Assembly (NCBI GenBank): GCA_031402655.1
Contig: JANNSO010000038.1
Location: 17,260 to 81,259 of the forward strand
Direction: 5' to 3'
DNA length: 64,000 bases
Source of the DNA: Spirochaetota bacterium
Lineage (GTDB): Bacteria > Spirochaetota > Spirochaetia > Treponematales > UBA12059
The stretch's first letter is position 1; every line of letters begins with the position of its first letter. A model generated the notes under the pieces. That model was not told where the DNA came from. It saw only the letters and a list, made by a program, of their open reading frames with translations, and searched no databases. The translations under genes were made by a program, and so were the position numbers. This document shows positions 10,638-36,553 of this stretch, in pieces.

Positions 10638-11036
10638 CTAATAGATTCCTAATACTGATAGCTTTGCTCTAATAAACGAAATAGCCTCATCAGCCAGATG
10701 CAGGGCATGCTGTATAACGGCAATATCAAGCGATCCTGGATAAGGATATCGTATTTTTACTGCATACTCGGTTAATTGAGCGCAGGTTTGCGTTAGCGTA
10801 ATAAATTGTTCATCGTATTTTTTACACTGGCTTAGTAAGAAGAGTAAGTCATGGGTTTTGTCCGGCTCAATATCATGTTTTATTAAATAAGCCTTGAGGT
10901 ATTTTTCAACGGCTTGCTGGCAATGAAAACCGACTATCTCCAGCGGAACAGGTTTCATACTCATGAGAAATTTAGCGGAATTTAGATCTTGAAGACCCAG
11001 CTCCAGCCATTCTGCGATCAGCTTATCAAGCTGCAT
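10638..11036 (-). CDS. HEPN domain protein (toxin of an MNT-HEPN pair)
   Basis: 132 aa. QQAVEKYLKAYLIKHDIEPDKTHDLLFLL and KIRYPYPG are typical of PF05168-type HEPN proteins. The start overlaps the MNT gene by 11 nt. Confidence 0.75.
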   Translation of the reverse strand: MQLDKLIAEWLELGLQDLNSAKFLMSMKPVPLEIVGFHCQQAVEKYLKAYLIKHDIEPDKTHDLLFLLSQCKKYDEQFITLTQTCAQLTEYAVKIRYPYPGSLDIAVIQHALHLADEAISFIRAKLSVLGIY

Positions 11037-12174: not shown

Positions 12175-12594
12175 ATGCTGTACGATCTTGTCTCAGAACG
12201 CAGGAGTAAGTATTGCGTTAAAGTCACCCAACCTGAGGAAGCTTACTCCGCGTTGAAACGTTATTCTCGAAAGGCACAGGAGCATTTTCTCGTCATCTGC
12301 TTGAATGCAGGGCGTATGGCCATCGCCACACGTATCATAACTGTCGGGCTCCTTAACCGTACGGTAATTCACCCTCGAGAGATATTCCGCCAAGCCATCA
12401 TCGACAATGCGGAGTCAATCATCATCGCCCACAATCATCCCTCAGGACTACTCTCACCCAGTAACGAAGACATTGAGCTTACAAAACGTATCCAAGAAGT
12501 TGGGAGGCTCGTGGGAATCCCGGTACTCGATCATCTTATTATTGGCCGAAATGGTTTCTATAGTTTCGCCACCGAAGGACTCTTGCGCCTATGA
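12175..12594 (+). CDS. RadC-like JAB/JAMM domain protein
   Basis: 139 aa with the JAMM motif IIAHNHPSGLLSPSNEDIELT, followed by VLDHLIIG. The length and motif match the short phage/ICE-borne RadC family. Confidence 0.85.
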   Translation: MLYDLVSERRSKYCVKVTQPEEAYSALKRYSRKAQEHFLVICLNAGRMAIATRIITVGLLNRTVIHPREIFRQAIIDNAESIIIAHNHPSGLLSPSNEDIELTKRIQEVGRLVGIPVLDHLIIGRNGFYSFATEGLLRL

Positions 12595-12612
12595 GCGCAG
12601 AAAGGAAAGACA

Positions 12613-13548
12613 ATGGAACTTGATTCCAAACGCAGTCACAGTGAAGAAGGATTAAATTCGGTCGTCGACCGTGCTCTTCTTGAAAACTGGATTACCAAGA
12701 CACCTGAAGGTAGCGCTCTCATGCCGGATGAAAAAGAACGCTTCATCAACACGGCCTTACTCTATCAGCTGAATCCATGGAAACGCGAAATTCATTGCAA
12801 AATCGATAACGCAAACCAGAGCCGGAAGCTTGTACTCGTAGTCGGCTATGAGGTGTATGTAAAGAAAGCGGAACGTACAGGTCTGCTTGATGGTTGGAAA
12901 GCATGGGTAGAAGGATCCGGCGACAATCTCAAAGGTGTTATAGAGATATACCGCAAGGATTGGTCTCATCCTTTTATTCATGAAGTCTACTGGGCAGAAG
13001 CAGTCCAGACTAATGAACGCGGGGAGCTCTTATTTTTCTGGCAAAAGATGCCCTGTTTCCAGCTCAGAAAAGTCGCTATCAGCCAAGGATTCAGACTAGC
13101 CTTCTCCGATGAAATCGGTGGGATTCCCTATGATGGATCAGAGCTTCCACTGTCTGAGAATATGCCTCCGCTTAAACAGGCAACCAATGAAGAGCGTGTC
13201 CAAAAGCCAGCCGCGACACCGTTAGCAAAAACAGAATCCGTGGATACCCTCGAAAACTTACAGGAGGGCATTCGGAAACTCACCTTGGATAACCAAGCCT
13301 TCCTAAAACCTACACATGTCTCATGGATTATCACTCAGCTAACAACGGAAAAGTCTGAGAAGCAACTTACAGGTCTTCATCAGCATGTAAAAAATGCAAT
13401 CGAGGAAGGCAAAGCTAATTCTATACCTCAGGTTAAGCCAAACGGTATTCGTCGCTTTCCCTCTAGGCGTCCACCAGATACTTCTAATGGCAACGTCCGC
13501 CATGAGCCGCTCAAAACCGCTGCTGGAGCTGAAGATCAAATATTCTAG
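12613..13548 (+). CDS. RecT/Bet-family single-strand annealing recombinase
   Basis: 311 aa. LNPWKREIH...VVGYEVYVKKAERTGLLDGW...FWQKMPCFQLRKVAISQGFRLAFSDEIGG matches the conserved W..MP..ML.K.A...ALR.AFP block of RecT/phage Bet proteins. Confidence 0.7.
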   Translation: MELDSKRSHSEEGLNSVVDRALLENWITKTPEGSALMPDEKERFINTALLYQLNPWKREIHCKIDNANQSRKLVLVVGYEVYVKKAERTGLLDGWKAWVEGSGDNLKGVIEIYRKDWSHPFIHEVYWAEAVQTNERGELLFFWQKMPCFQLRKVAISQGFRLAFSDEIGGIPYDGSELPLSENMPPLKQATNEERVQKPAATPLAKTESVDTLENLQEGIRKLTLDNQAFLKPTHVSWIITQLTTEKSEKQLTGLHQHVKNAIEEGKANSIPQVKPNGIRRFPSRRPPDTSNGNVRHEPLKTAAGAEDQIF

Positions 13549-13565
13549 TTAGAAAGGAATTTCCC

Positions 13566-14150
13566 ATGTTCGAACGTGCAAATACAAAGCAAAGCTCGCC
13601 GGATCTCGGCGAGCTTTTGTTTTCTCCTGAAAGCATTGATGTAACTACTAATGCCGAAGATTTTTCTATCACATCGATCGAGATGGCTACCTGGGCAGCT
13701 CGTAAAGTAATACAGGCGCGAACGCGCGTCGCGGAGCGAAAAACCTTGGCTGAGCGCTACAAGGCTCGCATCGACCAGTGGGTGAATGACGCCAACAAAG
13801 AAGATGATGACAGCACCGAATTTTTCATGAACCACCTAAAGCCCTTTGCAGAACGAGAAATCGGGAAACAGCGCCGCTCTCGCACACTTCACTTGCCCGG
13901 AGCAGAATTGTGTATGAGGAAGAAACCGGACCGCATAGAAATCCTCGATGAGCAGGAAGCCATTATCTACTGCGAGGAATATCTCCCGTCGGCGCTTATT
14001 ATAAAGAAAAGTCTCTCAAAGACCGTATTGAAGGCATCGATGCATTCAGGAGAACTTCCGCCCTCGGTATCCTTTATTCCAGGTGAAGATGAACTGTATG
14101 TGAATGCAGATGGCATAGGTCAGAACCTTGGAGCTCTCGATGCAGCGTAA
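13566..14150 (+). CDS. Mu Gam-like host-nuclease inhibitor family protein (tentative)
   Basis: 194 aa. An N-terminal coiled-coil-like segment (ATWAARKVIQARTRVAERKTLAERYKARIDQW) is followed by RSRTLHLPGAELCMRKKPDRIEILDEQEAIIYCEEY. This resembles the Gam-like pattern KS..L..G.v..R......v.d...... Confidence 0.5.
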   Translation: MFERANTKQSSPDLGELLFSPESIDVTTNAEDFSITSIEMATWAARKVIQARTRVAERKTLAERYKARIDQWVNDANKEDDDSTEFFMNHLKPFAEREIGKQRRSRTLHLPGAELCMRKKPDRIEILDEQEAIIYCEEYLPSALIIKKSLSKTVLKASMHSGELPPSVSFIPGEDELYVNADGIGQNLGALDAA

Positions 14151-15982: not shown

Positions 15983-16311
15983 ATAACACAGCAGTAGAAA
16001 GCCCCCATACAAATCGAATGAGCGATCTAAACAGTGTTCTTGTCGAAGGGAAAATAACAAAACTCATCGAGAAGGATTCCGAGCTAGTCGAACTCGAACT
16101 AGCTTCAGAACGTCGAAATCAGAAAGTTTCGCATAAAAGTAATATTTCGATTATTCGAATCAGCGTTGCTAGTTTCAATTCCGACGTTAAGAAATTACTC
16201 AAGCAAGGCGGCTGCATTCGAGTAGTAGGCTATATTTCTTCACCAAAACGAAATTTGGTCGTCGTCATCGCGGAACACGTTGAACTCAAGAGAACCGCGG
16301 AAAGGAATTAA
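15979..16311 (+). CDS. OB-fold SSB-like protein (tentative)
   Basis: 110 aa. LNSVLVEGKITK...ELELASER...IRISVASFNSDVKKLLKQGGCIRVVGYIS follows the SSB OB-fold pattern (N.V.L.G.l...., KG..v.v.G). There is a 4-nt overlap with the ArdC-like gene. Confidence 0.4.
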   Translation: MNNTAVESPHTNRMSDLNSVLVEGKITKLIEKDSELVELELASERRNQKVSHKSNISIIRISVASFNSDVKKLLKQGGCIRVVGYISSPKRNLVVVIAEHVELKRTAERN

Positions 16312-16312
16312 C

Positions 16313-16546
16313 ATGGCGAAAAACACACTGAAAAATGAGCGCAGGGGTTGGATTCGCAATCGTATCCAGTACTTCGATCCGATGCTCTCGGCATGGCTTA
16401 AGCGCGATACCCAGACAGGCGTAATCCTAGACAGGAAAAAAGGTGAGCCATGGAAAGGAATCCGGCAGGAAACTAGTAGTGCCACGATACTTGTATTCCC
16501 CCAAACACGGGAGGCGGATCGTGGCAATTTGCTCCCCGCCATATAG
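16313..16546 (+). CDS. Hypothetical protein
   Basis: ATG 16313 lies 2 nt after the upstream TAA, with AAAGGAA upstream (MAKNTLKNERRGWIRNRIQYF...). No recognisable domain. Confidence 0.4.
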   Translation: MAKNTLKNERRGWIRNRIQYFDPMLSAWLKRDTQTGVILDRKKGEPWKGIRQETSSATILVFPQTREADRGNLLPAI

Positions 16547-16721
16547 AGAGGATCCAGAATTGGTAATTGAACTTCTAGCCCTTATCGCCGCAATCATCAG
16601 CTTTATCGTTGCACTCCTCAAAGCAGGAGAGAAACCTGAAAGCATACTCAACATGGCCTCAAATAAGTTCGATGTACCGCTCTCAGTCATCGAACGGATT
16701 CTCAAGCTTTTTAACAAGTAA
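16443..16721 (+). CDS. Hypothetical small membrane protein
   Basis: 92-aa ORF with one hydrophobic helix (LLALIAAIISFIVALL). It overlaps the previous ORF in another frame, so the start is uncertain. A hairpin terminator follows. Confidence 0.3.
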   Translation: MSHGKESGRKLVVPRYLYSPKHGRRIVAICSPPYREDPELVIELLALIAAIISFIVALLKAGEKPESILNMASNKFDVPLSVIERILKLFNK

Positions 16722-16723
16722 TA

Positions 16724-16768
16724 TCTATCGCCTGCAGGTTAATCGCCTGCCGGCGATAGGTTTATTTA
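16724..16768 (+). terminator. Candidate intrinsic terminator ending the phage-like cluster
   Basis: Stem CTATCGCC (16724-16731) pairs with GGCGATAG (16751-16758), followed by GTTTATTTAT. The loop is long and the T-run is interrupted. Confidence 0.4.
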
Positions 16769-16880
16769 TGTACCTACTTTGAAATATTCTTAGGATCCCC
16801 AAACCTTCTCTGAGTCTCAAGTGCAGTTTTCTGCAATTCAGATAAGAGTTCATCGGAAAATTGTGAAAGCATGGTATTAA

Positions 16881-17129
16881 CGGTACAGCCAGGACGAACA
16901 AGTAGTCAAGATTGGAGCAGCTGTCATTTTTATGATTTTTGGTCTCATCAGCACCTTCAAAATATTCCGAGAGGAGATGGCAATGAATAGGGGACTTGCA
17001 CTCGTTTGCATCCTCGCATTTATCACTGCCACCGTACTTGCCAGCATCTATATTATTCGAAAGTACCCTACTGTAAAATGTACAACTTTAATTGAAGCTG
17101 CCTGTATCGATAAAAATTCGAACGTATAG
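16881..17129 (+). pseudogene. Possible 3' gene remnant or small membrane ORF
   Basis: The open frame begins right after a TAA at 16878-16880 and reads ...VVKIGAAVIFMIFGLISTFKIFREEMAMNRGLALVCILAFITATVLASIYII.... It consists of hydrophobic helices with no upstream coding context and is followed by a strong terminator. Confidence 0.25.
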
Positions 17130-17148
17130 TTCATCAAAGGTGCCATAC

Positions 17149-17197
17149 AAAACCATCCTGAAATCGATTTCAATTCAGGATGGTTTTTTGTTTTTTT
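17149..17197 (+). terminator. Rho-independent terminator
   Basis: The 12-bp stem AACCATCCTGAA (17151-17162) pairs with TTCAGGATGGTT (17174-17185), followed by TTTTGTTTTTTT. Confidence 0.75.
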
Positions 17198-17410
17198 GCC
17201 TGCAGCGTCCATCAAAAATTTACTTAACTGGCGATACGTTTTGGCGCAAAAAGTCTAAGTGGGCAAACTAAGCCTGCGCATCGATTTGGTTTATGGGCAA
17301 TTCCACAGAAAAACTCAATTTCTCCTTGCTTTAATCTACCACTGTTCTAACGGAGTCGAGGAAATTAACCGGCCACTGTATCCTTTTTCTGGAACTCAGC
17401 AAGTGGAACC

Positions 17411-17439
17411 TTGACAAAAGAAAGGAAAATGAATAACAT
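17411..17439 (+). promoter_or_regulatory. Sigma70-type promoter for the FTR1 gene
   Basis: TTGACA (17411-16), a 17-nt spacer, then TAACAT (17434-39). It sits 48 nt upstream of the ATG. Confidence 0.5.
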
Positions 17440-17445
17440 GATATT

Positions 17446-17464
17446 GATAATGATTATCATTATC
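17446..17464. promoter_or_regulatory. Fur box
   Basis: GATAATGATTATCATTATC matches the classical 19-bp Fur consensus GATAATGATAATCATTATC at 18 of 19 positions. It lies just downstream of the -10 element and 23 nt before the FTR1 start codon. Confidence 0.7.
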
Positions 17465-17486
17465 AATTTTCTTTCAAGGAGATGCT

Positions 17487-18326
17487 ATGAGCGAATTTTT
17501 CCCCGGTCTAATTGTTGGTTTTAGAGAAGGGTTGGAAGCATTCTTAATTGTGGCGATAGCTTTAAGATTTTTAGAAAAGCTTGGAAAACCGGAGCTTAAA
17601 CGAGGAGTCTTTATCGGTTCCGGGATTGGAGCAGTAGTCTCGCTTCTCTTCGGATTGGTATTGTTCGCCTTTAGCAACGTGCTGGGAGGAGCTGGAAACG
17701 CGGGGAAGATATGGGAAGTCATTGCCAGTCTGGCAGCTATGGCATTGGTATCCACTTTTATCGTCTGGATGATTAGACATGGTTCTGAAATCAAGGGAGC
17801 CGTCGAGAGCCGTCTGGGTACCCAGCTTACGGCTAGCGGAGTCTCCCTCATGATTGCCGCCATGGTATTGCGGGAAGGAGTGGAAATCGTCTTGTTCAGT
17901 TTCGCCGGCACCTATCCGCCACTGTCTTTATTCATAGGTATCATGGCAGCCCTGGTATTGGTTGCAATGGTATTCTACTCACTGGTCAAGTTTTCCCTAT
18001 CGGCGATTTTTAACCTTACCCTTGCTTATCTTATACTGCAAGCTGGGTTCCTGCTCGGCTACGGCCTGCACGAAGCCTTGTCAGCCTTGAAAAATTCAGG
18101 AGCGCTCGAGGCCACACACCCGATACTCATAAAAGCCTTTGATCTATCATCCACTGCCTTTAATCACAAAACCGGTTGGTTGGGCATACCACTCTATGCC
18201 TTGGTCGGGTGGTACTCAAAACCGGAGTGGCTTCAGTTCATCGTGCAATATCTGTATACCGGCCTTATGGTCGCATATTGGCTGGCGCTGCGATATGGAA
18301 AGAAAAAAAGCACTCTCTCCCGCTAG
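17487..18326 (+). CDS. FTR1/EfeU-family high-affinity iron permease
   Basis: 279-aa polytopic membrane protein with two RExxE motifs (FREGLEAFLIV near the N-terminus, LREGVEIVLF mid-protein). Confidence 0.85.
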   Translation: MSEFFPGLIVGFREGLEAFLIVAIALRFLEKLGKPELKRGVFIGSGIGAVVSLLFGLVLFAFSNVLGGAGNAGKIWEVIASLAAMALVSTFIVWMIRHGSEIKGAVESRLGTQLTASGVSLMIAAMVLREGVEIVLFSFAGTYPPLSLFIGIMAALVLVAMVFYSLVKFSLSAIFNLTLAYLILQAGFLLGYGLHEALSALKNSGALEATHPILIKAFDLSSTAFNHKTGWLGIPLYALVGWYSKPEWLQFIVQYLYTGLMVAYWLALRYGKKKSTLSR

Positions 18327-18691
18327 GAAATTCACTCGGAAGCGCTTCCGCGATCATTCAAGTTTCCCCAGTATGGATGCATGCTATCCTTTGGGGAACC
18401 GTATCCGGAAGCAGCTCCCTTTTTCCAAGGAGAATTCAAATGCTCCTGAAAACCTGCTTTGATAAAAGCGCTTGCCGATGTACCCGAAGAGTATGTTCCA
18501 GGTGAATGGGAATACAGTTGCGGTCTACATCGATTCGGTACTGGTTTTTTTTCTATACATCCGGCTGTATTTTTTAAGATTTGGAGGGATTTGATGCGAC
18601 GACACTTTAGAACTGCTTTCCCAAAGCTGGTTTTTATTTTCTTTTTTGTTTTCTGGATACTCGCATCTACTTAAGGTGACGAAGTTTATTT

Positions 18692-19165
18692 TTCTACTTA
18701 TGGGCAGGCCTTGGGCTCAGGCCCTTCGACGCAGTAAGCAGCGCCACTAAAGCGGGAAGAAATGTATCCTTTTCGGGAGAGCAATCTTATATTAACATTT
18801 ACCTTCTTACCGAAAAAGGTGCCTACAAATACCAACCTGAGACTCAGGCTCTTAAGTTTATCAAAACGGGAGATTTACGAGCGCTTATTTCTCAGGCAAC
18901 TATCCCTAATGCAGCGACAATGCTTGTTTATACTGTGGACAATGCCTTGACTCCATCCTTTCTAAAATCGAATCCCGCAACATTCATGCTAATGTCACAT
19001 GCCACGGCTAGCTTCGCAGCGCAAAATTTATCCCTTGCGGCATCAGCGAGAAAGCTCGCATCCATAATTCAATATTCACTAAAGGCTCAAGGGGCAATCG
19101 ACACATAGGGACTAGCAAAGGAAGAAATCCCTTTATTTATCCAGCAGATTGGATTCACAGAATAA
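18692..19165 (+). pseudogene. 5'-truncated nitroreductase-like pseudogene (paralogue of 25420-26070)
   Basis: Aligns codon-for-codon, without indels, to the C-terminal 157 codons of the 216-aa gene at 25420-26070 on the opposite strand. The first ~58 codons are missing and there is an upstream in-frame TGA at 18677. An internal TAG replaces TTG 19 codons before the normal stop (...AIDT*GLAKEE...). Confidence 0.8.
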
Positions 19166-19228
19166 TCGACCTTGTGTCGGTATTAGTCAGGAAAAAGCAG
19201 AACCGCATTCAAAGGCAGAAAGCGGTCC
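18692..19228. repeat. Left arm of a 537-bp inverted repeat (partner 25357-25893)
   Basis: By hand alignment I count about 43 mismatches and no indels over the 474-nt coding part. Homology continues ~60 nt past the stop into the terminator stem. Confidence 0.8.
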
Positions 19229-19762
19229 CGGCCTGACATCCCGCGGGGAATAGAGCCGCGGGAGGGGATATCTGGAGTCGAAGTAGCCTGCCGGTCAACA
19301 ATACAACTGAAGCTACTGCCCATTAAGCCCTAGAGCATATAAAGTGTCAAACTTTGGATGATGCACTGTAATTACATACATTACATTGCATTATCTAATT
19401 TTCTATAGGTTATATAATTATATTTCATGGGTTCCATAGGCACCGCTGGAATGGCATGCTTTGGCACCGGAATCTGCTCACACAAGTGCTCACAAGGAAA
19501 TAATGGGGTAAATTAACTGTTAGCCAAAAAAAGTTTCTAGTATTTCCCAGGATATCGATAGAAAGAGGTGTTTTTTTTGAATAACTGACTTCTCTGACGA
19601 TCATTTCAAACTGGCTACTAGTCTCGGTGATTGTGAACCTGGAGTGAAAGAACGGAGCGCTTACTGTGAATTGAAGGAATTTTGGGCATCCGTGTATTGT
19701 AGCTGGCCAAATTCGCTCATATACTGTGAAGGTATATATAGTAGAAATGCTTTTTATGTCCT

Positions 19763-21949
19763 TTGGAGGATCTAGTGCGCAGAAGCAGACTTGGAACAAA
19801 AATCGCTTTGTTGGTTGCGGCGGTTGTGCTTGCAGCCTTATCCATAACCATAGGTTTCATAGCCCTTACAATACAAACTTCGGCTCGAGAATCCGCGCTC
19901 AGCGAAGCACGTGGCTTAGCGACGACGCAAGCGGCGATTGCCTCGTCGGAATTCACTTTGGTACGAACCTCAATGACCGAGTTGGCGCGGATATTCAGCA
20001 TATATAAAAGCTTTCCCGATAGTCATACCATCAGGTTGATCGAGGAAATGCTCCGGGCGACGCTCGCGGATGAACCGCGGATTATTAACGCATGGGTAAT
20101 ACTGCTTCCGGGAATGATCGAGCAGGATTCCTATTTTCGTACTGGTTGGCACCGGATGGATGGCATGATAAGCAAGCAGGAAGCTTCAGCGGAAGAGCTC
20201 CCGCAAATATTCTCGGATGTACAGAAGACCGGGAAATCATGGATCGCCGAGCCTTATGAAATCAAGGAAATCTCAGGCGATATGGCAATGGGTTCCAGCT
20301 CGATGCAGCTTGCAAGCAGTATAGCGGTTCCCATCCTAGATGAAAGCGGGAAGACGGTCGGAATCGTAGGCGCGGATTTTACCCTTGCGTTTCTCCAGAA
20401 AAAGATCGGGACCGTCGCTGTGTTTGACAGCGGTTATGGAGAGCTTCTTACGAGTAAGGGAATGGTCACTACGTCTAATCAGCTGGATCGCATCGGTAAA
20501 ATCGCCCATGAAATCGAGGATGAGTCTAACGCATCGGTGCTTGCCGCGATAGGGGGCGGTAGCGGGTATGGGTTCGTCTCGAAGGCCGATCAGCATGGTG
20601 GTTCCGCCTTTAAATATCTCGCTCCGGTATCAACGGGAGAAGCCTCCGCGCTATGGAGTTTCCTGATCGTGGTTCCGTATTCTGAAGTCATGGTCGAGGT
20701 CTATCGGCTCGTCGGAATCATCGTGATCGTGGGAATTGTCGCCCTCGTCGCGATGGTACTGATCATAGCCTTCCTCGTTACGGCCTTGATACGTCCCCTC
20801 GACTCGATGGTTCAGGTTTTGAAGGAAATCGCGGATGGCCAAGGAGATTTGACAAAGAAAATCGAATCCCGCCGAAAGGACGAAATCGGTTTCCTGGCGC
20901 AGCATTTCAACCGTTTCAGCTCATCGCTCGCGGCTTCGATAGGCTTGATTGTCATGTCCGCAGAACGCCTGATCGGAACCGGTCGCGACCTCGAAAAAAA
21001 CATGGGTACCGTATTCTCCGCCATAACCGAGATCGCAGCGAACGCTCATAAGATGAAGGAAGGATCCGAAAGGCAGGCGAGCAGCGTGGCCCTGACTTCC
21101 GATGCCACCGGCCTGATCCTCGAAAGAATCGAGCGCCTCAAGCTTCTCGTGAAGGGACAATCCGCGAGCGTCCTGCAGTCTTCGGCATCAATAGAGGAAA
21201 TGATAGCGAATATCGTGTCGATGGCTACAAACGCGGAATCCGCCGGTGGCCATTACGCGAGCCTGGTCGGGGCCTCGGAAAAGGGCACGGACGTAATCGC
21301 GGACGTAAGCAGGCAAGTGAAGGAAATCGCCAACCAATCGGCTGCCTTAAGCGAAGCTAATGAAATAATTGCGGCGATTGCCTCGAAGACGAATCTCTTG
21401 GCGATGAATGCGGCCATCGAGGCCGCACATGCGGGAGATTATGGAAAGGGATTCGCGGTCGTTGCGGATGAGATTCGCAATCTCGCCGAGAGTTCCGCGA
21501 CCCAATCCATGGGCATCGGGAACAGTATCAAAGGCATTCAGTCATCCATTACCGCAGTCGTTTATTCTTCGTCAATAGCGGAAGATACGTTCTCTGATGT
21601 GCGAAGCCGGATAACGTTACTCTACTCCCTTCAGGATGAATTGAAGAGCGCGCTGCTCGAGCAGAAGCAAGGCTCGGCTTCGACCTTGGAGTCCCTTGCC
21701 TCAATACGCGATACGACCGCTGAAGTCGATTCGTCCGCAGGCGAGATGAGGGATGCCTGCGCGAAAGTTGCGAACGAAATGACCGCCCTCGTCGCTGCAA
21801 GCGTCGAGTTTAATCGCGGCGTAGAGGAAATCGCGCTTGGTGCATCGGAAATCGATCGGAGCCTCGCCACTACTGCGGACCTGACGCGCATGAACCGAGG
21901 GAATATCGACGAAGTCGTCCAAGTGACAAGGGCATTCAAGATTAAATGA
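19763..21949 (+). CDS. Methyl-accepting chemotaxis protein (Cache-type periplasmic sensor, HAMP, MCP signalling domain)
   Basis: There are two TM segments around a ~280-aa periplasmic region. HAMP motif: [23 protein letters not shown]. The signalling hairpin is highly conserved: [40 protein letters not shown]. The start may be GTG 19775 after GGAGGA rather than TTG 19763. Confidence 0.9.
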
Positions 21950-23238
21950 GCATTTTTAAAATAATCTCCCGTCATAGGGCCAGACTCGGGCGCAATGTCC
22001 TGATTGAGTTTTCATTACTCATGTTTTCGGTTATCCTGGTTACTTCGGCTACTCTCGGATATGTGCTTACGGGATTCGTGCGGGGACATGTCATACGTAT
22101 GCATGGCTCTTTCTATGCGCAAGGCCTGACGACTGTTTTCCCCCAATTCCTGGAAAGCGAAAACGAGGAGCAATTTAAGGCAATTGTCGCTCGTTTTGAA
22201 TTATCTGGTAGCTTGCCTCATGTCGAAGAACTGGCGATTTGGGATTCCACTGGAACCCAGGTCTTCGGCGACCTAGGCGAAAATAAGACAAAAGAGCTTG
22301 ATCTGATGGTTCGCGGCGCTTTAAACGGACTGATCCAGTACTCATACCAACGTGGGAATTTCCTGAATAGCGGCGTCGGAAACCATAAGGAATTATTTCT
22401 TTACCTGCCGATTACAGATGCCTTTTTCAAGGTGATAGGTATCGTCGGCTTAAGGGAATCCGATGACGCCTTGATCGATGACTTGTCTGCTGCCAGCGCG
22501 AAGATCGTCTTGTACGTCGTGCTCGCTGGGTTCCTTATATATGTAAGCCTATTCATATCATTTTACCATGCCTACAACCGCCAGCTCCTGATTAGCGAGC
22601 GGCTACAGAAGTCCCAGGATAGCATTATTTTTGCGATGTCCAGCCTCTCGAGCTTACGTGATCAGGAAACCGGCGGGCATCTGGAACGTTGTAGGGCCTA
22701 TGTAGGCTTGCTTGCTTCGAAACTCATAGGCGAACCCAAATATAAAGAATACGTCGATGATCAGTATATCCGGGATCTTGCGAGCATCGCCCCGCTGCAT
22801 GATATCGGAAAAGTGGGTATAGAGGATTCGATTCTGAGGAAGCCGGGAAAGTTGACCGATTGCGAATTTGATGTCATGAAGACGCACTCCGCGCTCGGTT
22901 CTGAAATATTGCAAAAAGCGCGTGAGCAGCTTCCGTTCAACTCGCAGCTTGAATTGGCGGTAGACTTGACTCGCCATCATCATGAACGCTGGGACGGCAA
23001 GGGATATCCTTCCGGTCTCGCCGGCGCTTCCATTCCACTGTCCGCGAGGATAATGGCGCTCGCCGACGTCTATGATGCGCTGAGATCCGAGCGTTACTAC
23101 AAGAAAGGGATGTCCCATATCGACGCGGTGAAGATTATCGAATCGGGCAGCGGAAGCCAGTTCGATCCGTTATTGGTTTCTGTATTCTTGAAGAATCATG
23201 TTGAATTTGAATCGATATTTATGGGTTTAGCCATTTGA
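21946..23238 (+). CDS. Membrane-anchored HD-GYP domain protein (c-di-GMP phosphodiesterase family)
   Basis: 430 aa. Two TM helices flank a ~150-aa external domain. HD-GYP signatures are LHDIGKVGI and [14 protein letters not shown]. The ATG overlaps the MCP stop (ATGA, 21946-21949). Confidence 0.85.
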
Positions 23239-23484
23239 AATACATGGATTTTTGACAAATCAGCATTAAAAAATATTACTTAGCGATTCGGGCGAAAATA
23301 ACTTTCCGCGGAAACGATGCTTCTTTGGCTCCAGGTTCTGCTCTTGCAGCCGGAAAAGAAGACCGCCATGTCCATGACTTCAGCAAAACTGGCACGAAAA
23401 TTCCAGTTTTCCATCTCCTGAAGATTGAACTCGATGCATGCACACCCCGACGGGAGCAATAAAATTTAATAAGCTGCGGTAAAA

Positions 23485-23513
23485 TTGACGAATACGCTAG
23501 GCCTGCGTATCTT
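23485..23513 (+). promoter_or_regulatory. Sigma70-type promoter with embedded dyad ATACGC-N7-GCGTAT upstream of the multicopper oxidase
   Basis: TTGACG (23485-90), a 17-nt spacer, then TATCTT (23508-13). The dyad arms lie at 23492-97 and 23505-10. The RBS GGGAGGAG is at 23517-24 and the ATG at 23531. Confidence 0.45.
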
Positions 23514-23530
23514 GTAGGGAGGAGATTACT

Positions 23531-24904
23531 ATGAACTCAAAATTTCTTTTAACCATCGCCTTGACGGCGGTTTTTTTTGCCGGTACGAACGCCAGTGCAC
23601 TCAGCGTCAAGCTCGACATCAAAGAAAGCTTGGTTGAATTGAGCCCTGGACTGAAAACCAAGGTCTGGTCCTACAATGGTTCGGTTCCCGGCACCCCCAT
23701 AATTTTAAACGTTGGCGATGAACTTACCCTCGAAGCAGTAAACCATTTGCCGGTGGCCACCAGCATCCACTGGCACGGAATGGAAGTGCCGAACGACCAG
23801 GATGGGACAATGGCTGCCATTGAACCTGGGAAGACGGTTATCTATCGCTTCAAAGTCACAACCCCGGGTACTTACTGGTTTCACAGTCACACCCGACCCG
23901 TCCTTGATCAGGTTGACATGGGTCTCTACGGAGCTTTTATCGTCAAGGCTCCGGAAGATTCCCAATATACCTCGGACCAAACGTTCCTCCTTGACGATTG
24001 GTTCCTCGGAGCCCGAGGCGAAAGGTTGAAGGGTACCGCCCGGGGTGGGATGGAACGTCTGGGTAACATCGAGACTGTCAATGGAAAGACGGGCGATGCC
24101 ATCCTTCCCTTGAACGTGAAACAGGGGGAGCTTCACAAGTTACGGTTTATCAATGCATCTACGGCGGCTGTTCATACCCTCAAACTGTCCCAAGGGAAAT
24201 TTCGGGTCACTCACACCGACGGACATCCCCTGACACAACCGTATTTTACTGACACATTGGTGATTCAGCCCGCCGAACGTTTTGACGTGGAATACTCGGC
24301 GACCGGAATACCCCGGAGCAAGCAAATGATTGAATCGGCAGACCGGGACCTCGGTCTTTCAATCCCCATTGTCTACGGCTCTGGCAGTCAGGTCCAGCAG
24401 GCTTCCCCGTATATCCCACCGGCCTCGAGAGCGTTTGCAGGGATCGGGGCAAAGAAGCCTGACTTTACCTTGGTTCTCAATTCACAGATGGCTATGACAA
24501 TGGCCAAGGACGACGGGATAGGAATGGGCGGAATGATGATGATGGACCACGGCTCGGGTACCATGCCCATGGAATGGACCATCAATGGAAAAACGTTCCC
24601 CAACGCCGATCCTTTGACCGCGAAGGTTGGCCAGATCATCAAGGTTAAGTTCGTGAACAACGACACCCAGATGATGCATAAGATGGATCACCCGATCCAT
24701 CTCCATGGCACCTACTTTCAAGTCGTCAGTATCAACGGAAAAGCACCCGAACGCGAAACATGGAAGGACACAATCTCAGTACCGGCTGGCGGCAGCGTTG
24801 AAATCGCCTTTCAGTTCAAGAACCCTGGGGACTGGATGCTTCATTGCCACATCCTGGATCACGAGGACAACGGAATGATGACGGCCGTAAAGGTGAAGGA
24901 ATAA
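23531..24904 (+). CDS. Multicopper oxidase (CopA/CueO-like, Met-rich insert)
   Basis: 457 aa with signal peptide MNSKFLLTIALTAVFFAGTNASA. Copper ligand motifs are SIHWHGMEV, YWFHSH, HPIHLHG and HCHILDHEDNGMM. The Met-rich segment is MAMTMAKDDGIGMGGMMMMDHGSGTMPME. Confidence 0.9.
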   Translation: MNSKFLLTIALTAVFFAGTNASALSVKLDIKESLVELSPGLKTKVWSYNGSVPGTPIILNVGDELTLEAVNHLPVATSIHWHGMEVPNDQDGTMAAIEPGKTVIYRFKVTTPGTYWFHSHTRPVLDQVDMGLYGAFIVKAPEDSQYTSDQTFLLDDWFLGARGERLKGTARGGMERLGNIETVNGKTGDAILPLNVKQGELHKLRFINASTAAVHTLKLSQGKFRVTHTDGHPLTQPYFTDTLVIQPAERFDVEYSATGIPRSKQMIESADRDLGLSIPIVYGSGSQVQQASPYIPPASRAFAGIGAKKPDFTLVLNSQMAMTMAKDDGIGMGGMMMMDHGSGTMPMEWTINGKTFPNADPLTAKVGQIIKVKFVNNDTQMMHKMDHPIHLHGTYFQVVSINGKAPERETWKDTISVPAGGSVEIAFQFKNPGDWMLHCHILDHEDNGMMTAVKVKE

Positions 24905-24945
24905 CGGAACAGGATGGAAACCTGTGTCCAGGCTAGATCAATAGC

Positions 24946-25117
24946 ATAATGGCGCTCGCCGACGTCTATGACGCGTTAAGGTCTGAGCGTTACTATAAAA
25001 AAGGAATGGACCATCGTGAGGCTGTGGAAATCATCGAAACCAGCAGCGGAAGTCAATTCGACCCTTTGCTGGTTTCTGTCTTCATCAAACATCATGGTGA
25101 CTTTGATTTTTTTTAAG
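24946..25117 (+). pseudogene. Orphan 3' fragment of an HD-GYP gene
   Basis: Reads [56 protein letters not shown]. This parallels residues ...[51 protein letters not shown]... of the intact gene at 21946-23238. There is no upstream coding sequence. Confidence 0.8.
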
Positions 25118-25180
25118 GAAAAACATTTTACATAGCATATCCAAGAATATTGTTATTTTTAATTCAGGTATAAATTATGG

Positions 25181-25284
25181 GACTCTCTAATAACCCTGTT
25201 GGTTATCAGGGATGCCTCTCTGATTCCTTACAGGAATCAGGTTTTTTAATGGTCGACCTCGCAAAACTGAAGTTTTTCGAGGTC
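25181..25284 (-). repeat. ~104-nt three-hairpin repeat element, copy A (partner 36450-36553, opposite orientation)
   Basis: Hairpins lie at 25255-25284 (GACCTCG...CGAGGTC), 25220-25240 (CTGATTCC...GGAATCAG) and 25187-25209. A 35-nt core (ACCATTAAAAAACCTGATTCCTGTAAGGAATCAGA on the minus strand) is identical to copy B. Confidence 0.75.
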
Positions 25285-25344
25285 CCCTTATAAAAAAAGC
25301 TGAGGGCAACATATTTTTGCCAAGAACGCTTGCGCCACTATTCA

Positions 25345-25395
25345 GTGAAAAAAAGAGGACCGCTTTCTACTTTTGAATGCGGTCCTGTTTTTTTC
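25345..25395. terminator. Bidirectional intrinsic terminator
   Basis: Stem GGACCGC (25357-63) pairs with GCGGTCC (25379-85). It is flanked by an A-run upstream and TGTTTTTTT downstream. It follows the minus-strand nitroreductase-like gene and closes the plus-strand MCO unit. Confidence 0.65.
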
Positions 25396-25893
25396 TGACT
25401 AATACCGGCATAAGGTCTATTATTCTGTGAATCCAATCTGCTGGATAAATAAAGGGACTTCGTCCTTTGCTAGTCCCAATGTGTCGATCGCCCCTTGGGC
25501 CTTTAGCGAATATTGAATTATGGATGCGAGATTTCTCGCTGATGCCGCAAGGGATATATTTTGCGCTGCGAATCCAGCCGTAGCGTGTGACATCAGCGTG
25601 AATGTAGCGGGATTCGCCTTTAGGAAGGACGGAGTCAAGGAATTGTCCACAGTATAAACGACCATTGCCGCTGCATTGGGGATAGCTGCCTGCGAAATTA
25701 GCGCTCGTAAATCGCCTGTTTTTATAAACTTGAGAGCCTGAATCTCAGGTTGGTATTTGTAAGCGCCTTTTTCGGTAAGAAGGTAGATGTTAATATAAGA
25801 TTGCTCTCCCGAAAAGGATATATTTCTTCCCGCTTTAGTGGCGCTGCTTACTGCGTCGACGGGCCTAAGCCCAAGACCCGCCCATAATATGAA
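25357..25893. repeat. Right arm of the 537-bp inverted repeat (partner 18692-19228)
   Basis: Covers the 3' two-thirds of the intact nitroreductase-like gene plus its terminator stem. See the left-arm entry. Confidence 0.8.
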
Positions 25894-26070
25894 GGACAAA
25901 TCGGGTGCGGGAATCTCCTTCTTTACAAAGGTTCTTGAAACACGGCGATCCTGAATTGCCTTGGCAAGGTCGATTCCTACGCTTCTTGCCGGTTTTTGCA
26001 ATGGTATGTCTTGTGTGAAGACGCTTGCTGCCGCGGAAACCGCGATTAAAATTGCCAGTAATCTTTTCAT
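25420..26070 (-). CDS. Secreted nitroreductase-family-like protein
   Basis: 216 aa with signal peptide MKRLLAILIAVSAAASVFTQ. RRVSRTFVKKEIPAPDLSFILWAGLG resembles the N-terminal R.S.R.F....l....l..iL.A motif of nitroreductase-fold proteins. The family call is tentative. Confidence 0.55.
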   Translation of the reverse strand: MKRLLAILIAVSAAASVFTQDIPLQKPARSVGIDLAKAIQDRRVSRTFVKKEIPAPDLSFILWAGLGLRPVDAVSSATKAGRNISFSGEQSYINIYLLTEKGAYKYQPEIQALKFIKTGDLRALISQAAIPNAAAMVVYTVDNSLTPSFLKANPATFTLMSHATAGFAAQNISLAASARNLASIIQYSLKAQGAIDTLGLAKDEVPLFIQQIGFTE

Positions 26071-26148
26071 CTCTTGATCCTTTCTCTAACGTCGAGCCTT
26101 ATCCGGCCCAACGATCACAACTTGCCAGGCAAGTTATTCTCTTATAAG

Positions 26149-26868
26149 TTATTTTAAGTTGACTGCCTTAATCAACTTGTCAACAAAGACCACTTTCCCC
26201 CTTTCATCTTTCTCCTCAAATTTCCTTGGAGTCCAACCTGAAACTTTAGCCGGGTCCAAGCCGGCCTGAACAAGTGGACCTAGATTTAATATCCAGACAA
26301 GATCATTACTGTTCATTGAGAGATCTTGAGCCCATTCGATCATATTGCCGTCGGCGAGCATTATGCCATAATGGTAGAGTTTTTTATGAAATCGGAAATT
26401 GTTGGGATAAATCCTGGCTATCTCCGCGAATGTAGCTTTGAGCGAATCCTTGGTATCCGAAGCAGTTTTTTTGTTTCCAAGCTCAAAATGAAGCATAAAC
26501 CTATCACCCTCAATTTCGTATTTGACGCCTTCTACCATCGGGAGCTTACTTGGGTCCAAGCCGGCAGCTAAAAATGGCTTAACATCAAAAGAGAACTCAG
26601 CATCCGGCTTATCCATATCCGGCATTCCTGACCCCCCGGCGTTACGGGAAAAATCAGAAGAAAAATAAACTTCGTCACCTTGCGTAGATGCGAGCATCCA
26701 GGCAGAGTCCTCCTCGACCCATGTTACATTGCTTCCCGAAGCGTCTGCGACGGCATTGAAGGATGCTTTTGCTTTTTCGGTTACTAAAGAACTCGAATTG
26801 CACCCGGAAAATAAAATTAAAATCGCCGTGAAAGCGATTCCTACCGCGAATACTTTTGGATTTCTCAT
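26149..26868 (-). CDS. Lipoprotein of unknown function
   Basis: 239 aa with lipobox LILFSGC. There is an internal duplication (PFLAAGLDPSKLPMVEG / PLVQAGLDPAKVSGWTP). Confidence 0.6.
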   Translation of the reverse strand: MRNPKVFAVGIAFTAILILFSGCNSSSLVTEKAKASFNAVADASGSNVTWVEEDSAWMLASTQGDEVYFSSDFSRNAGGSGMPDMDKPDAEFSFDVKPFLAAGLDPSKLPMVEGVKYEIEGDRFMLHFELGNKKTASDTKDSLKATFAEIARIYPNNFRFHKKLYHYGIMLADGNMIEWAQDLSMNSNDLVWILNLGPLVQAGLDPAKVSGWTPRKFEEKDERGKVVFVDKLIKAVNLK

Positions 26869-27410
26869 GAATTTCTCCCTTTGTTTCCGGCTTTACCGGT
26901 TTTTAGTTCCATCTTCCAGGAATGTAATCTGGTTCAAAGCATAATCTTTCTCGCACTATATTGCAAATAATAACCATTAATTATGAATTTTACATGAATG
27001 CCTGATAGTATCTTTGTACTATCGATTCATTTTGATTTTACTACCTCGTGCTATTTATACAAGGATTCTGTTCGATAGACTGCAAGAATAGCGAAAGTAG
27101 ATATCGTATTTTATCAGCTATCCACATGAGTGCCCTGCGAAGAAGGTGGTAGAAGTGACCAATACTAATCCGATGAGCTTGACTATAATAAAGCGTAGTC
27201 TTGTTATTGTCAAAGTGAGTAGAGGATATCTATGTATTTAAAACGGGCAATCGACACGAGGCTTAGTACTTGCTCGTCACGGATCGAGCGGAAATTTTGA
27301 ACCCTGAACTCAAGCAACATATTAGACTCCGATATAAAAAAAATACATTAGTATTGCAGATTTTCTACCGGGATATAATTTATTTTTATACCCCTCCATA
27401 TCATTGATCC

Positions 27411-28631
27411 TTAAGCGATAAAAGGCAAAATCCTTGCCTCCACCGCCATGGCGGTTTCTTTAAGGCGGATATCATGGTCGGCATGGTCATAATGATCCGT
27501 CATGCTCTTGGTTAAGTGCCCAGTTGACTCCCTTAGGTTCTCGTCGGAAATCGTTCCGCGAAGCAAGGTATTATAGAGGTGGCGGAGTGAGTGAAAAGTA
27601 ATATTCCTGGCTTGCCTGGAACCCATAGGCACAGGACGTTTTGCTCCTGCATCCTTAATGCCTATTATACCTAGCTGAGCGTAAAATGCGGTTTCGATAG
27701 TCTTTCCATGGATGGGTACTGCTTCTTTTTCCGACCAGAATACCCAATCATTTTTATAGGGATTAAGCTTTTTCAGCTTGCAAATTGCCAGGTATAAAAC
27801 TTTGGGCAGGAATACGACTCGGGTCTTCCCGTTTTTTGTGCTTTTCAAGCCTTCTTTTTTACTATAGGAGCCTGATACCACGATGCGATCAGACTCGATC
27901 ATCGAATGGCGTAAACCGATAACCTCGCCAAGTCGAAGCCCGCATGCCAGCGAAATCATGGCAGCTATCTTGATACGGTCGTTATCCCACTTTGAGTTGA
28001 AGAGGCTCTTAATTTCCAGGCTGGTCAACAAGCCTTTAACTACGTTGTCCTTCTGTAGCTTAGGTACCCGCTGAATGGGGTTGTCGCGAATCATACCAAG
28101 GCGTAGCGCCTCGCTTAATGGCTTGCCTAGCGTGCAGAGAAGGGCATTACAGCTCGTGTTGCTCAATCCGGTTCACTGCTTAAAATCGAGAATAAACGAT
28201 TCGATAGCCCCGCTCGTCACTTTGGAAAGAAGGGTATCACCAAGCGCGCTGGCGATAAGGTATCGCTTAATATAAGAGTGATTGCTCATTACGTATTCTT
28301 TGCCAATAGAACGGCCTCGTAACCTGAGAGCCCGTATATATGAGGATTGCTCCCAGTCCCAAAACTGCAGGCAATAGTCGCCGAACTGGATCTCTTTTAC
28401 GCGCTTTTCCACCCCATACTTTTCTAGCCATGCCTGAGCGATAAGACGGGAATCGGGTTTCTTTGTCGCCGAGTACATTGCAGAATCAAGGCTCAGTAGT
28501 TCGCGCAGCCGCTCAACAGAACGCCCAGTCAAGTAAACGCGTCCCTCTGGGTCCCAGAATTGAACATAATAGGAAAACCGAGCATTTGTACTGGATCTTC
28601 GCTTGTATAGGGCATAGGGAAACCGCGCCAT
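27411..28631 (-). pseudogene. Tyrosine recombinase/integrase interrupted by one in-frame TGA (28173-28175)
   Basis: The track ORFs 28173..28670 (N-terminal arm/SAM-like part, likely start MARFPYALYKRR at 28631) and 27411..28166 (catalytic part) are in the same frame. Across the junction the sequence reads ...FILDFKQ*TGLSNTSCNAL.... Catalytic residues are present: GLRLGE (R), HSLRH (HxxR), GHLTKSMTDHYDH (H..Y). It is adjacent to the tRNA 3' end. Confidence 0.8.
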
Positions 28632-28748
28632 CGTGTGCTCCGAAAAAATCTGACATTTCGTCTGACACACACTGTTTAGACCGCAAGCACCATAAAATAC
28701 AAAAACCGCAATCCCTTATCTAGTAAGGAGTTGCGGTTCTCGTCTAAT

Positions 28749-28821
28749 TGGAGAATACCGGATTCGAACCGGTGACCTATTGATTGCGAACCAATCGCTC
28801 TACCAACTGAGCTAATTCCCC
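28749..28821 (-). tRNA. tRNA-Ala (anticodon CGC)
   Basis: The minus strand reads GGGGAAT TA GCTC AGTTGGTA GAGC G ATTGG TTCGCAA TCAAT AGGTC ACCGG TTCGAAT CCGGT ATTCTCC A. This folds as a 73-nt cloverleaf with the G3:U70 alanine identity pair and anticodon CGC. CCA is not encoded. Confidence 0.9.
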
Positions 28822-28963
28822 AAGGTTGGGCTTGACTATAATCGAGTGTAAAAAAATAATCAAGCATTTGACTCTTGGCTGTCGAATCTTGGCAAAAAAT
28901 ATTTCTGTGATACCTTACAAAGCAAAGGAAACCGTCAACGGTTCTTTTTTTGGAGGAACAGGC

Positions 28964-36246: not shown

Positions 36247-36449
36247 GACGCGAGTATACAGAATAGTAAATACTTGATGCAACACAAGAGCAAAAAAATA
36301 TGATGGTTTTCCTAGTCTATCCTGGGAAATTGTAGTACTCTTATAGAGAACCGAGAATTTTCTAATAGAGAGAAGGCGCCGTAGGTCTGCAATTATTTTT
36401 TTAAATTAATTTAATTCCATACCACGGGTAAATTTATCTCATACCAGGA

Positions 36450-36553
36450 GAGCTCTAAAAACTGCAGTTCTTAAGAGCTCAACCATTAAAAAACCTGATT
36501 CCTGTAAGGAATCAGAACGGAAGCTCTGATACCCAACAGGGTTATTGGAGCTT
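36450..36553 (+). repeat. ~104-nt three-hairpin repeat element, copy B
   Basis: Hairpins lie at 36450-36480 (GAGCTCT...AGAGCTC), 36495-36515 (CTGATTCC...GGAATCAG) and 36526-36548, the last enclosed by AAGCTC/GAGCTT (36521-26 / 36548-53). The element ends 28 nt before the ATG of the lipoprotein gene at 36582. Confidence 0.75.

Follow-up and report, generated by a model that had tools for sequence, protein, structure and literature searches.

Inverted paralogues that recombine with each other in bacteria, such as tufA and tufB of Salmonella and the rrn operons, are nearly identical and are kept so by gene conversion. In pathogenic spirochaetes, the vls and tprK systems operate by gene conversion from silent donors. 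Programmed inversions, in which a gene exchanges part of its sequence with an inverted partner, have been surveyed with an entry screen for inverted repeats of at least 22 bp that link coding sequences (CDSs) of opposite strands separated by at most 15 kb, and the validated loci have significantly shorter distances between the CDSs (Milman, Yelin and Kishony, NAR 2023, PMC9881135). The locus described here resembles these systems at first sight. It lies in a stretch of 64,000 nucleotides (the window) from a Spirochaetota bacterium (GTDB lineage Treponematales, UBA12059; assembly GCA_031402655.1, contig JANNSO010000038.1, positions 17,260 to 81,259, forward strand) and consists of an inverted repeat, one arm of which is part of an intact nitroreductase-family gene (NTR) and the other a truncated copy of it. 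A first-pass annotation made from the sequence alone described the repeat as bracketing a cassette of sensory and copper genes. The repeat is probably the decayed relic of a second operon of NTR and a putative lipoprotein gene (LIPO), situated among the usual copper/iron neighbours of that operon, and probably does not mark the edges of a cassette, mobile or invertible.

The arms were analyzed by a repeat search, a base-by-base comparison and blastn of the window against itself. They are 544 nt long, align without gaps, are 90% complementary and lie 6128 nt apart (Table 1); base by base, 490 of the 544 nucleotides are identical, leaving 54 mismatches. Self-blastn, the check that the first-pass annotation had proposed for its hand alignment, returns a match of 531 nt at 91% with E = 0.0, which excludes chance similarity of the arms. 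The hand count itself was accurate: there are exactly 43 mismatches within the 474 coding nucleotides (18692-19165), and the majority at third codon positions is confirmed over all aligned codons, where codon positions 1, 2 and 3 carry 11, 5 and 30 mismatches, respectively (chi-square against a uniform distribution, p = 1.5e-5). The aligned NTR codons include 24 synonymous and 17 non-synonymous codon differences. As had also been noticed, homology extends into the terminator stem of the right copy; its inner end, 19228/25357, falls where the stem of a strong hairpin (-24.1 kcal/mol, z = -7.2) finishes on its 3′ side; an A-tract borders this hairpin on one side and a T-tract on the other. The T-tract (U-tract) following the stem is present in the right copy, and the left copy has none. 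The longest perfect blocks shared by the arms measure 39, 38 and 34 bp, and when 54 mismatches were placed randomly in a simulation, a run of at least 39 bp appeared in 61% of trials (P = 0.61). Recent gene conversion between the arms was considered and rejected, because the longest identical run matches chance expectation.

The right copy belongs to the nitroreductase family by its match to Pfam PF00881 above the curated cutoff, and its 86 homologues are nearly all 216 aa long. The family has a signal-peptide-like N-terminus, which is unusual for the flavin nitroreductase fold. LIPO carries a lipobox-like LFSGC and an internal repeat around AGLDP[SA]K, and has no match in Pfam, NCBIfam or PDB. 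An exact-sequence look-up found no record for NTR; LIPO, the multicopper oxidase (MCO) and FTR1 of the window were matched.

In the left copy, the 216-codon gene is preserved only from codon 58-62 onwards, so that the first 57-61 codons are missing, and its TAG takes the place of a TTG (Leu198) in the right copy, 19 codons ahead of the TAA that both copies share; the 5′-truncation and the nonsense codon had both been read correctly in the first pass. A further remnant, LIPO′, had been overlooked: this short piece aligns with the reverse complement of 26701-26653 (44 of 49 nt identical, E = 1e-11), which lies within the 239-aa lipoprotein gene upstream of the right NTR copy. The matches of LIPO′ and of the left arm are collinear and have the same orientation relative to the right-copy operon; thus, the copied unit was the LIPO-NTR operon, comprising at least 25357-26701 (1345 bp). 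Relative to this unit, the left copy is without about 760 bp, corresponding to right-copy coordinates from roughly 25888/25901 to 26652/26658. A few ambiguous bases (microhomology) mark the deletion join around 18696-18698, and the frames of LIPO′ and the NTR remnant are out of register across it. Upstream of 18653, blastn and blastx detected no resemblance to the 5′ end of LIPO or to its promoter region. The left copy has no start codon, and the longest in-frame open reading frame (ORF) in the arm is 62 aa; it can be aligned to NTR codon for codon but cannot be translated as a whole. With its start lost, its frame disrupted and a premature stop acquired, the left copy is, to judge by its sequence, a dead pseudogene that has been disabled several times over.

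The substitutions between the two copies tell of a longer history. Divergence estimated by the Nei-Gojobori method is dS = 0.285 at synonymous and dN = 0.052 at non-synonymous sites, i.e., a dN/dS ratio (omega) of 0.18, and, besides its TAG, the left copy has only 16 amino-acid replacements relative to the right one, mostly conservative. When the 17 replacement differences were polarised against 25 homologues, 12 were assigned to the left copy and 3 to the right, with 2 ambiguous (binomial p = 0.035); those derived in the left copy include changes of the near-invariant Ser59 and Gly166. The low omega, the excess at third positions and the preponderance of left-derived replacements suggest long-lived paralogues of which the left one decayed late: both copies would have been under purifying selection for most of their divergence, and only then would the left copy have been released, in a relaxed phase that on a rough reading may correspond to the last quarter of the left branch. 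The proposal of the first pass that these were two once-functional paralogues and not a fresh duplication is thus supported. The two copies are about 89% identical as proteins and are the nearest relatives of one another: when 5.8 billion proteins were searched, the best match apart from the window's own protein was 68% identical; the absence of any closer relative of either copy indicates a duplication specific to this lineage or to close, unsampled kin. As in other decayed paralogues, one copy is intact and the other is truncated, out of frame and interrupted by a nonsense codon, with past purifying selection still legible and the excess of replacements in the dead copy. Unlike in those cases, the duplicated unit here is a two-gene operon, it lies inverted within its own functional neighbourhood, and a relic of an HD-GYP gene accompanies it.

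Table 1. Features of the window around the inverted repeat, and independent contigs that match it (window positions).
Feature	Position	Strand	Remarks
Logan contig L029	7487-18755		100% identical
FTR1/EfeU-type iron permease	17487..18326	+	directly upstream of the left remnant
LIPO′, fragment of second lipoprotein gene copy	18653..18701	+	about codons 56-72 of the intact gene 26149-26868
Left arm, nitroreductase pseudogene	18685..19228	+	codons ~58-216; TAG 19106-19108; original TAA 19163-19165; terminator-stem remnant without T-tract ~19199-19228
Logan contig L028	19396-25248		100% identical
MCP (dCache, HAMP, MCPsignal)	19763..21949	+	first gene of operon; end overlaps HD-GYP start by 4 nt
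HD-GYP-type (HD_5) phosphodiesterase, full length	21946..23238	+	domain match
Multicopper oxidase (MCO), three-domain, CueO/CopA-like	23531..24904	+	Cu-oxidase_3, Cu-oxidase, Cu-oxidase_2
HD-GYP 3′ fragment	24943..25116	+	last ~55 codons of a second, more diverged gene; convergent to NTR
NTR hairpin terminator	25347..25395	-	A-/T-tract flanks, so possibly bidirectional; inner boundary of the repeat at the stem
Right arm	25357..25900	-	final 481 nt of intact NTR and the 63 nt that follow, reaching into the terminator stem
NTR, intact nitroreductase-family gene, 216 aa	25420..26070	-	PF00881 43.6 bits vs cutoff 23.5; PDB 8cqs, 3hoi
LIPO, intact 239-aa putative lipoprotein gene	26149..26868	-	upstream partner of NTR
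Logan contig L002	28158-25830		100% identical
Logan contig L001	28777-25830		100% identical
Tyrosine recombinase (integrase)	27411..28670	-	one in-frame TGA at 28173-28175; adjoins tRNA
tRNA-Ala(CGC)	28748..28822	-	likely integration site of the low-GC region

The genes between the arms are those that the first pass had named, namely an MCP gene, an HD-GYP gene, a multicopper oxidase gene and the 3′ fragment of a further HD-GYP gene; the CueO and copper_res_A models score below their NCBIfam cutoffs on the oxidase. The same genes recur beside NTR in other spirochaetes. A profile of the NTR family retrieved 25 loci from GTDB species representatives, among which the window's own genome is not included; nearly all belong to Rectinemataceae, Treponemataceae and unclassified Spirochaetota metagenome-assembled genomes (MAGs), with Rectinema subterraneum in addition. 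Several related genomes carry two NTR paralogues. Neighbours were counted by tblastn with the window proteins and by clustering of all ORFs of the loci, at loci whose NTR is at least 56% identical. LIPO accompanies NTR at 8 loci, HD-GYP at 6, MCP and multicopper oxidase at 4 each, a CopA-type P-type ATPase with HMA domains at 7 and a membrane protein combining HMA and DsbD_2 at 9; FtrD-like proteins, OmpR/histidine-kinase pairs and a GGDEF protein are found at several loci, and the FTR1 permease at one (L005). Copper/iron genes are present at 11 of the 12 such loci that have enough flanking sequence. Gene order varies: locus L015 reads CopA, MCO, NTR and then, convergently, HD-GYP and MCP, with the same 4-nt MCP/HD-GYP overlap as in the window, L020 reads HMA-DsbD_2, LIPO, NTR, CopA, MCO, GGDEF and HD-GYP, and both orientations of NTR relative to MCP-HD-GYP occur among the relatives.

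Like bacterial copper-homeostasis loci, the window contains a multicopper oxidase with three cupredoxin domains, and the related loci add the CopA-type ATPase, HMA proteins and an OmpR-type two-component system; a copper ATPase and a metal-responsive regulator adjoin NTR in L005, L015, L016, L018, L020 and others. Unlike classical copper loci, the window is without these partners: tblastn detected in it no CopA ATPase, HMA-DsbD_2 protein, two-component system, FtrD-like protein or GGDEF gene. The MCP-HD-GYP pair, the secreted nitroreductase-fold protein and the uncharacterised lipoprotein stand outside classical copper loci. By gene content, then, the arms and the genes that they enclose are one persistent neighbourhood of variable order, of which the window has a reduced version.

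A second relic lies within the spacer and had been recognised in the first pass only as a gene fragment. Its positions 24943-25106 are a direct repeat, 164 nt long and 79% identical, of 23047-23210 in the full-length HD-GYP gene, a relationship that had been missed. The window's own HD-GYP is also its closest relative at the protein level (78%, compared with at most 65% for homologues at the related loci), and the mismatches of this pair are again biased to third positions (9/3/23). The fragment is convergent to the right NTR and stands exactly where the full HD-GYP gene stands in L015. The two HD-GYP 3′ ends flank the multicopper oxidase gene as direct repeats, and this arrangement suggests that illegitimate recombination attached the oxidase gene, or the entire MCP-HD-GYP-oxidase block, to a pre-existing junction between HD-GYP and NTR. 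The HD-GYP pair is more diverged than the NTR pair (pS 0.63 versus 0.24, Fisher p = 4e-5), and a single-event origin of both relic pairs was rejected on account of this significant difference in synonymous divergence. We infer two or more duplication or recombination events that differ in age, or else a single such event plus traceless homogenisation, after which the redundant partners would have been lost; one working copy of each gene would remain, assembled from two lineages of copies. Among the intervals 18327-18700, 19166-19800, 23200-23560, 24880-25440, 26860-27420 and 16000-17500, blastx against the ORFs of the related loci detected the HD-GYP fragment alone.

The repeat could in principle be an artefact, in which two strain variants of a locus have been misjoined in a MAG contig with one of them reversed. 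The source is indeed a metagenome-type contig, 101,685 bp long, and 90% identity falls within the range of strain or species variants. This is nevertheless very improbable, as judged from Logan assemblies of the runs SRR20217205 and SRR20217196, which were compared with the window (Table 1). Contigs from the two runs reproduce at 100% identity the passage from FTR1 into the left arm and that from the tRNA through integrase and LIPO into the right arm; they reach the two arms from distinct outer flanks, so that both arms, with their outer junctions, exist in the reads. L029 on one side and L001 and L002 on the other end at the mirrored positions 18755 and 25830, whose sum, 44585, is the pairing sum of the arms. 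These ends lie 30 nt into the 38-bp run common to both arms, each contig stopping exactly where the shared 30-mer begins, which is the pattern that a repeat produces in a k = 31 assembly graph. The left arm, moreover, has its own deletion junction and unique flanks, and the longest exact run is only 39 bp. L028 begins at 19396, 167 nt past the inner border of the left arm, in AT-rich sequence that is unrepeated in the window; candidate reasons are strain variation, low coverage or a repeat in another part of the genome. Its other end falls inside a 105-nt element described below. The first-pass notion of arms bracketing a cassette that might have arrived by insertion finds no support either. 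Arms acting as composite-transposon-like ends that carried sensory and copper genes into or next to NTR would fit inverted copies flanking accessory genes in a low-GC segment with mobile-element genes, but the arms encode a nitroreductase-fold protein and not a transposase. No transposase was found in 17-27.4 kb of the window, no direct repeat resembling a target-site duplication flanks the arms (repeat search, blastn), and no intact recombinase or invertase is present, the sole one nearby having an in-frame TGA beside a tRNA. In addition, the left arm runs on into part of the adjacent gene, which marks it as an operon copy and not an element end, and blastx at the borders revealed no further relics of genes. 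Genomes without such arms have the enclosed genes beside NTR as well; the 6.1 kb are not cargo brought by the arms but consist of habitual neighbours of NTR and LIPO in Rectinemataceae and Treponemataceae. An origin by insertion is accordingly regarded as highly unlikely.

Inversion deserves somewhat more attention. As a passive substrate of RecA-dependent homeologous recombination, the repeat might keep both orientations of the MCP/HD-GYP/MCO segment in the population, much as the tuf and rrn pairs show that inverted homologous genes could give rise to inversion or conversion. The minimal processing segment for recombination in Escherichia coli is about 25-30 bp, which the three longest perfect blocks of the 544-bp homology exceed, and the two gene orientations seen among the relatives imply that the neighbourhood has been rearranged in the history of the family. 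On the other hand, where mismatch repair is active, a divergence of 10% typically makes recombination 100 to 1000 times rarer, and unlike the tuf and rrn pairs the arms are diverged to this extent, with a mismatch pattern free of conversion or crossover tracts. If a crossover took place upstream of 19106, the sole intact NTR would acquire the TAG, so that most recombinants would be selected against, and none of the four independent contigs departs from the window over the part that it covers. Standing inversion of this kind is therefore unlikely; the arms may recombine occasionally, and nothing indicates that they are maintained for that purpose. A programmed, gene-altering inversion, in which the neighbouring tyrosine recombinase would swap the 3′ part of NTR with the silent truncated copy, can be measured against the survey by Milman et al. 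(2023, PMC9881135). The locus passes the entry screen, with repeats within 15 kb, shows the same asymmetry between a full-length gene and an inverted pseudogene lacking the 5′ region, and has a recombinase gene 1.3 kb from the operon. It departs from the loci of the survey (Milman et al., 2023, PMC9881135) in that the spacer, at 6128 nt, is not short and holds three complete unrelated genes, and there is no variable domain, the differences being mostly synonymous (omega as given above). Stops interrupt both the silent copy and the recombinase; with the TAG in the former, a swap would yield no new functional allele, and the latter, whose in-frame TGA is found in the window and in the independent contigs, adjoins a tRNA as an island integrase does. 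A programmed function is thus strongly disfavoured. Even less can be said for the left copy as a silent donor for segmental conversion of the expressed NTR, by analogy with vls or tprK. A promoterless, truncated and inverted copy, about 90% identical and a few kb from a gene for a secreted protein, in a spirochaete-like genome, would invite the comparison, but there is just one donor, interrupted by a stop codon, most of the differences are synonymous and they do not concentrate in variable regions, no mosaic tract is seen, and the relatives are environmental MAGs for which no immune pressure is expected. Such a role would be extremely unlikely.

The decayed-operon interpretation can be put as a sequence of events. 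The lineage would once have held two LIPO-NTR operons in opposite orientation within a copper/iron neighbourhood comprising MCP-HD-GYP, the multicopper oxidase and FTR1, and selection would have kept both copies while their DNA diverged to about 10%, as the substitution pattern suggests. The left copy was then inactivated by lesions that can be seen in its sequence: everything upstream of about LIPO codon 56 is gone, and the ~760-bp deletion took the 3′ part of LIPO, the intergenic region and NTR codons 1-57/61 in a microhomology join that left the remnants out of frame. The change from TTG to TAG and the absence of the terminator T-tract complete the decay, leaving the right copy as the single functional operon. 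The HD-GYP relic beside the right NTR would mean that the neighbourhood passed through at least two separate duplication or recombination events, whose redundant parts were then lost, and the low-GC segment bounded by integrase and tRNA, with its mobile-element genes, would be a plausible source of diverged duplicates.

Several points weigh against this interpretation. The ancestral state of two intact operons is reconstructed and not observed; the arrangement could have arisen by inverted duplication in place or by fusion of two paralogous clusters, and neither model, in its simple one-step form, accounts for the NTR and HD-GYP pairs being diverged to different extents. The inner junctions, 19229 and 25356, are contained in the source contig alone and in none of the Logan contigs retrieved, although with no exact run longer than 39 bp they would be easily resolved by a larger k or by read pairs, and a low level of inversion isomers may exist. 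Furthermore, the asymmetry between a gene and a truncated pseudogene is also the attribute that, taken singly, best predicts programmed inversions (Milman et al., 2023, PMC9881135). It is conceivable, although quite improbable, that the truncated copy is kept as a recombination partner, and that rare inversion or conversion flips the MCP/HD-GYP/oxidase operon relative to FTR1 and toggles NTR between a full-length and a truncated or variant form. If this were true, an environmental spirochaete would be using homology between the arms to switch a copper/iron-handling module on and off.

The wider setting of the locus is a segment of deviant composition: GC content rises from about 45% in 1-29 kb to about 57% in 30-64 kb, and the low-GC segment (1-29400) ends near the tRNA-Ala gene. 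An integrase beside a tRNA and a deviant composition are both features of an island. No att repeat of the tRNA-Ala 3′ end was found, in that no exact repeat of at least 12 nt from 28700-28830 occurs elsewhere in the window, and the far end of the island may lie outside the window. The integrase is split by its TGA also in independent Logan contigs (e.g., L001), which shows that the split is not a sequencing error of the source contig; the gene is either a pseudogene or a case of read-through or recoding. The segment further contains a DpdE-like SNF2 helicase (2520-5396; PADLOC E = 9e-169), a DruE-like helicase of 1711 aa (5403-10538), a HEPN gene (10638-11036), whose neighbouring gene as called on L029 matches nucleotidyltransferase families, and RadC, RecT and Gam-like genes (12175-14150). 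From its composition and gene content, it looks like an integrated mobile element with defence genes, and the copper/iron neighbourhood appears to be cargo of this degenerate element.

A separate element of about 105 nt occurs twice in the window, at 25185-25288 on the plus strand and 36446-36550 on the minus strand, with 85% identity between the copies. Each copy contains three hairpins (z about -5); the middle one is terminator-like, CTGATTCC-TTAC-GGAATCAG followed by T6, and compensatory changes between the copies occur in the outer stems of hairpins 1 and 3. The element has no match in Rfam, a scan of which at the gathering threshold gave the tRNA alone; its 34-nt core had zero matches in JGI metagenome contigs, and a covariance model found no further copies in 393 kb of the window and related loci.

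The inverted repeat thus adds one more instance, of a known kind, to the cases of duplication followed by decay in rearrangement-prone accessory regions, and it cautions that inverted arms flanking accessory genes need not mean a cassette. As a by-product, the comparison brings out a nitroreductase-fold protein with a signal peptide and an uncharacterised lipoprotein that recur beside copper/iron and MCP-HD-GYP genes in Rectinemataceae and Treponemataceae. This association, as read from gene neighbourhoods, points to a putative and as yet unstudied periplasmic redox accessory of metal homeostasis in this group of spirochaetes.

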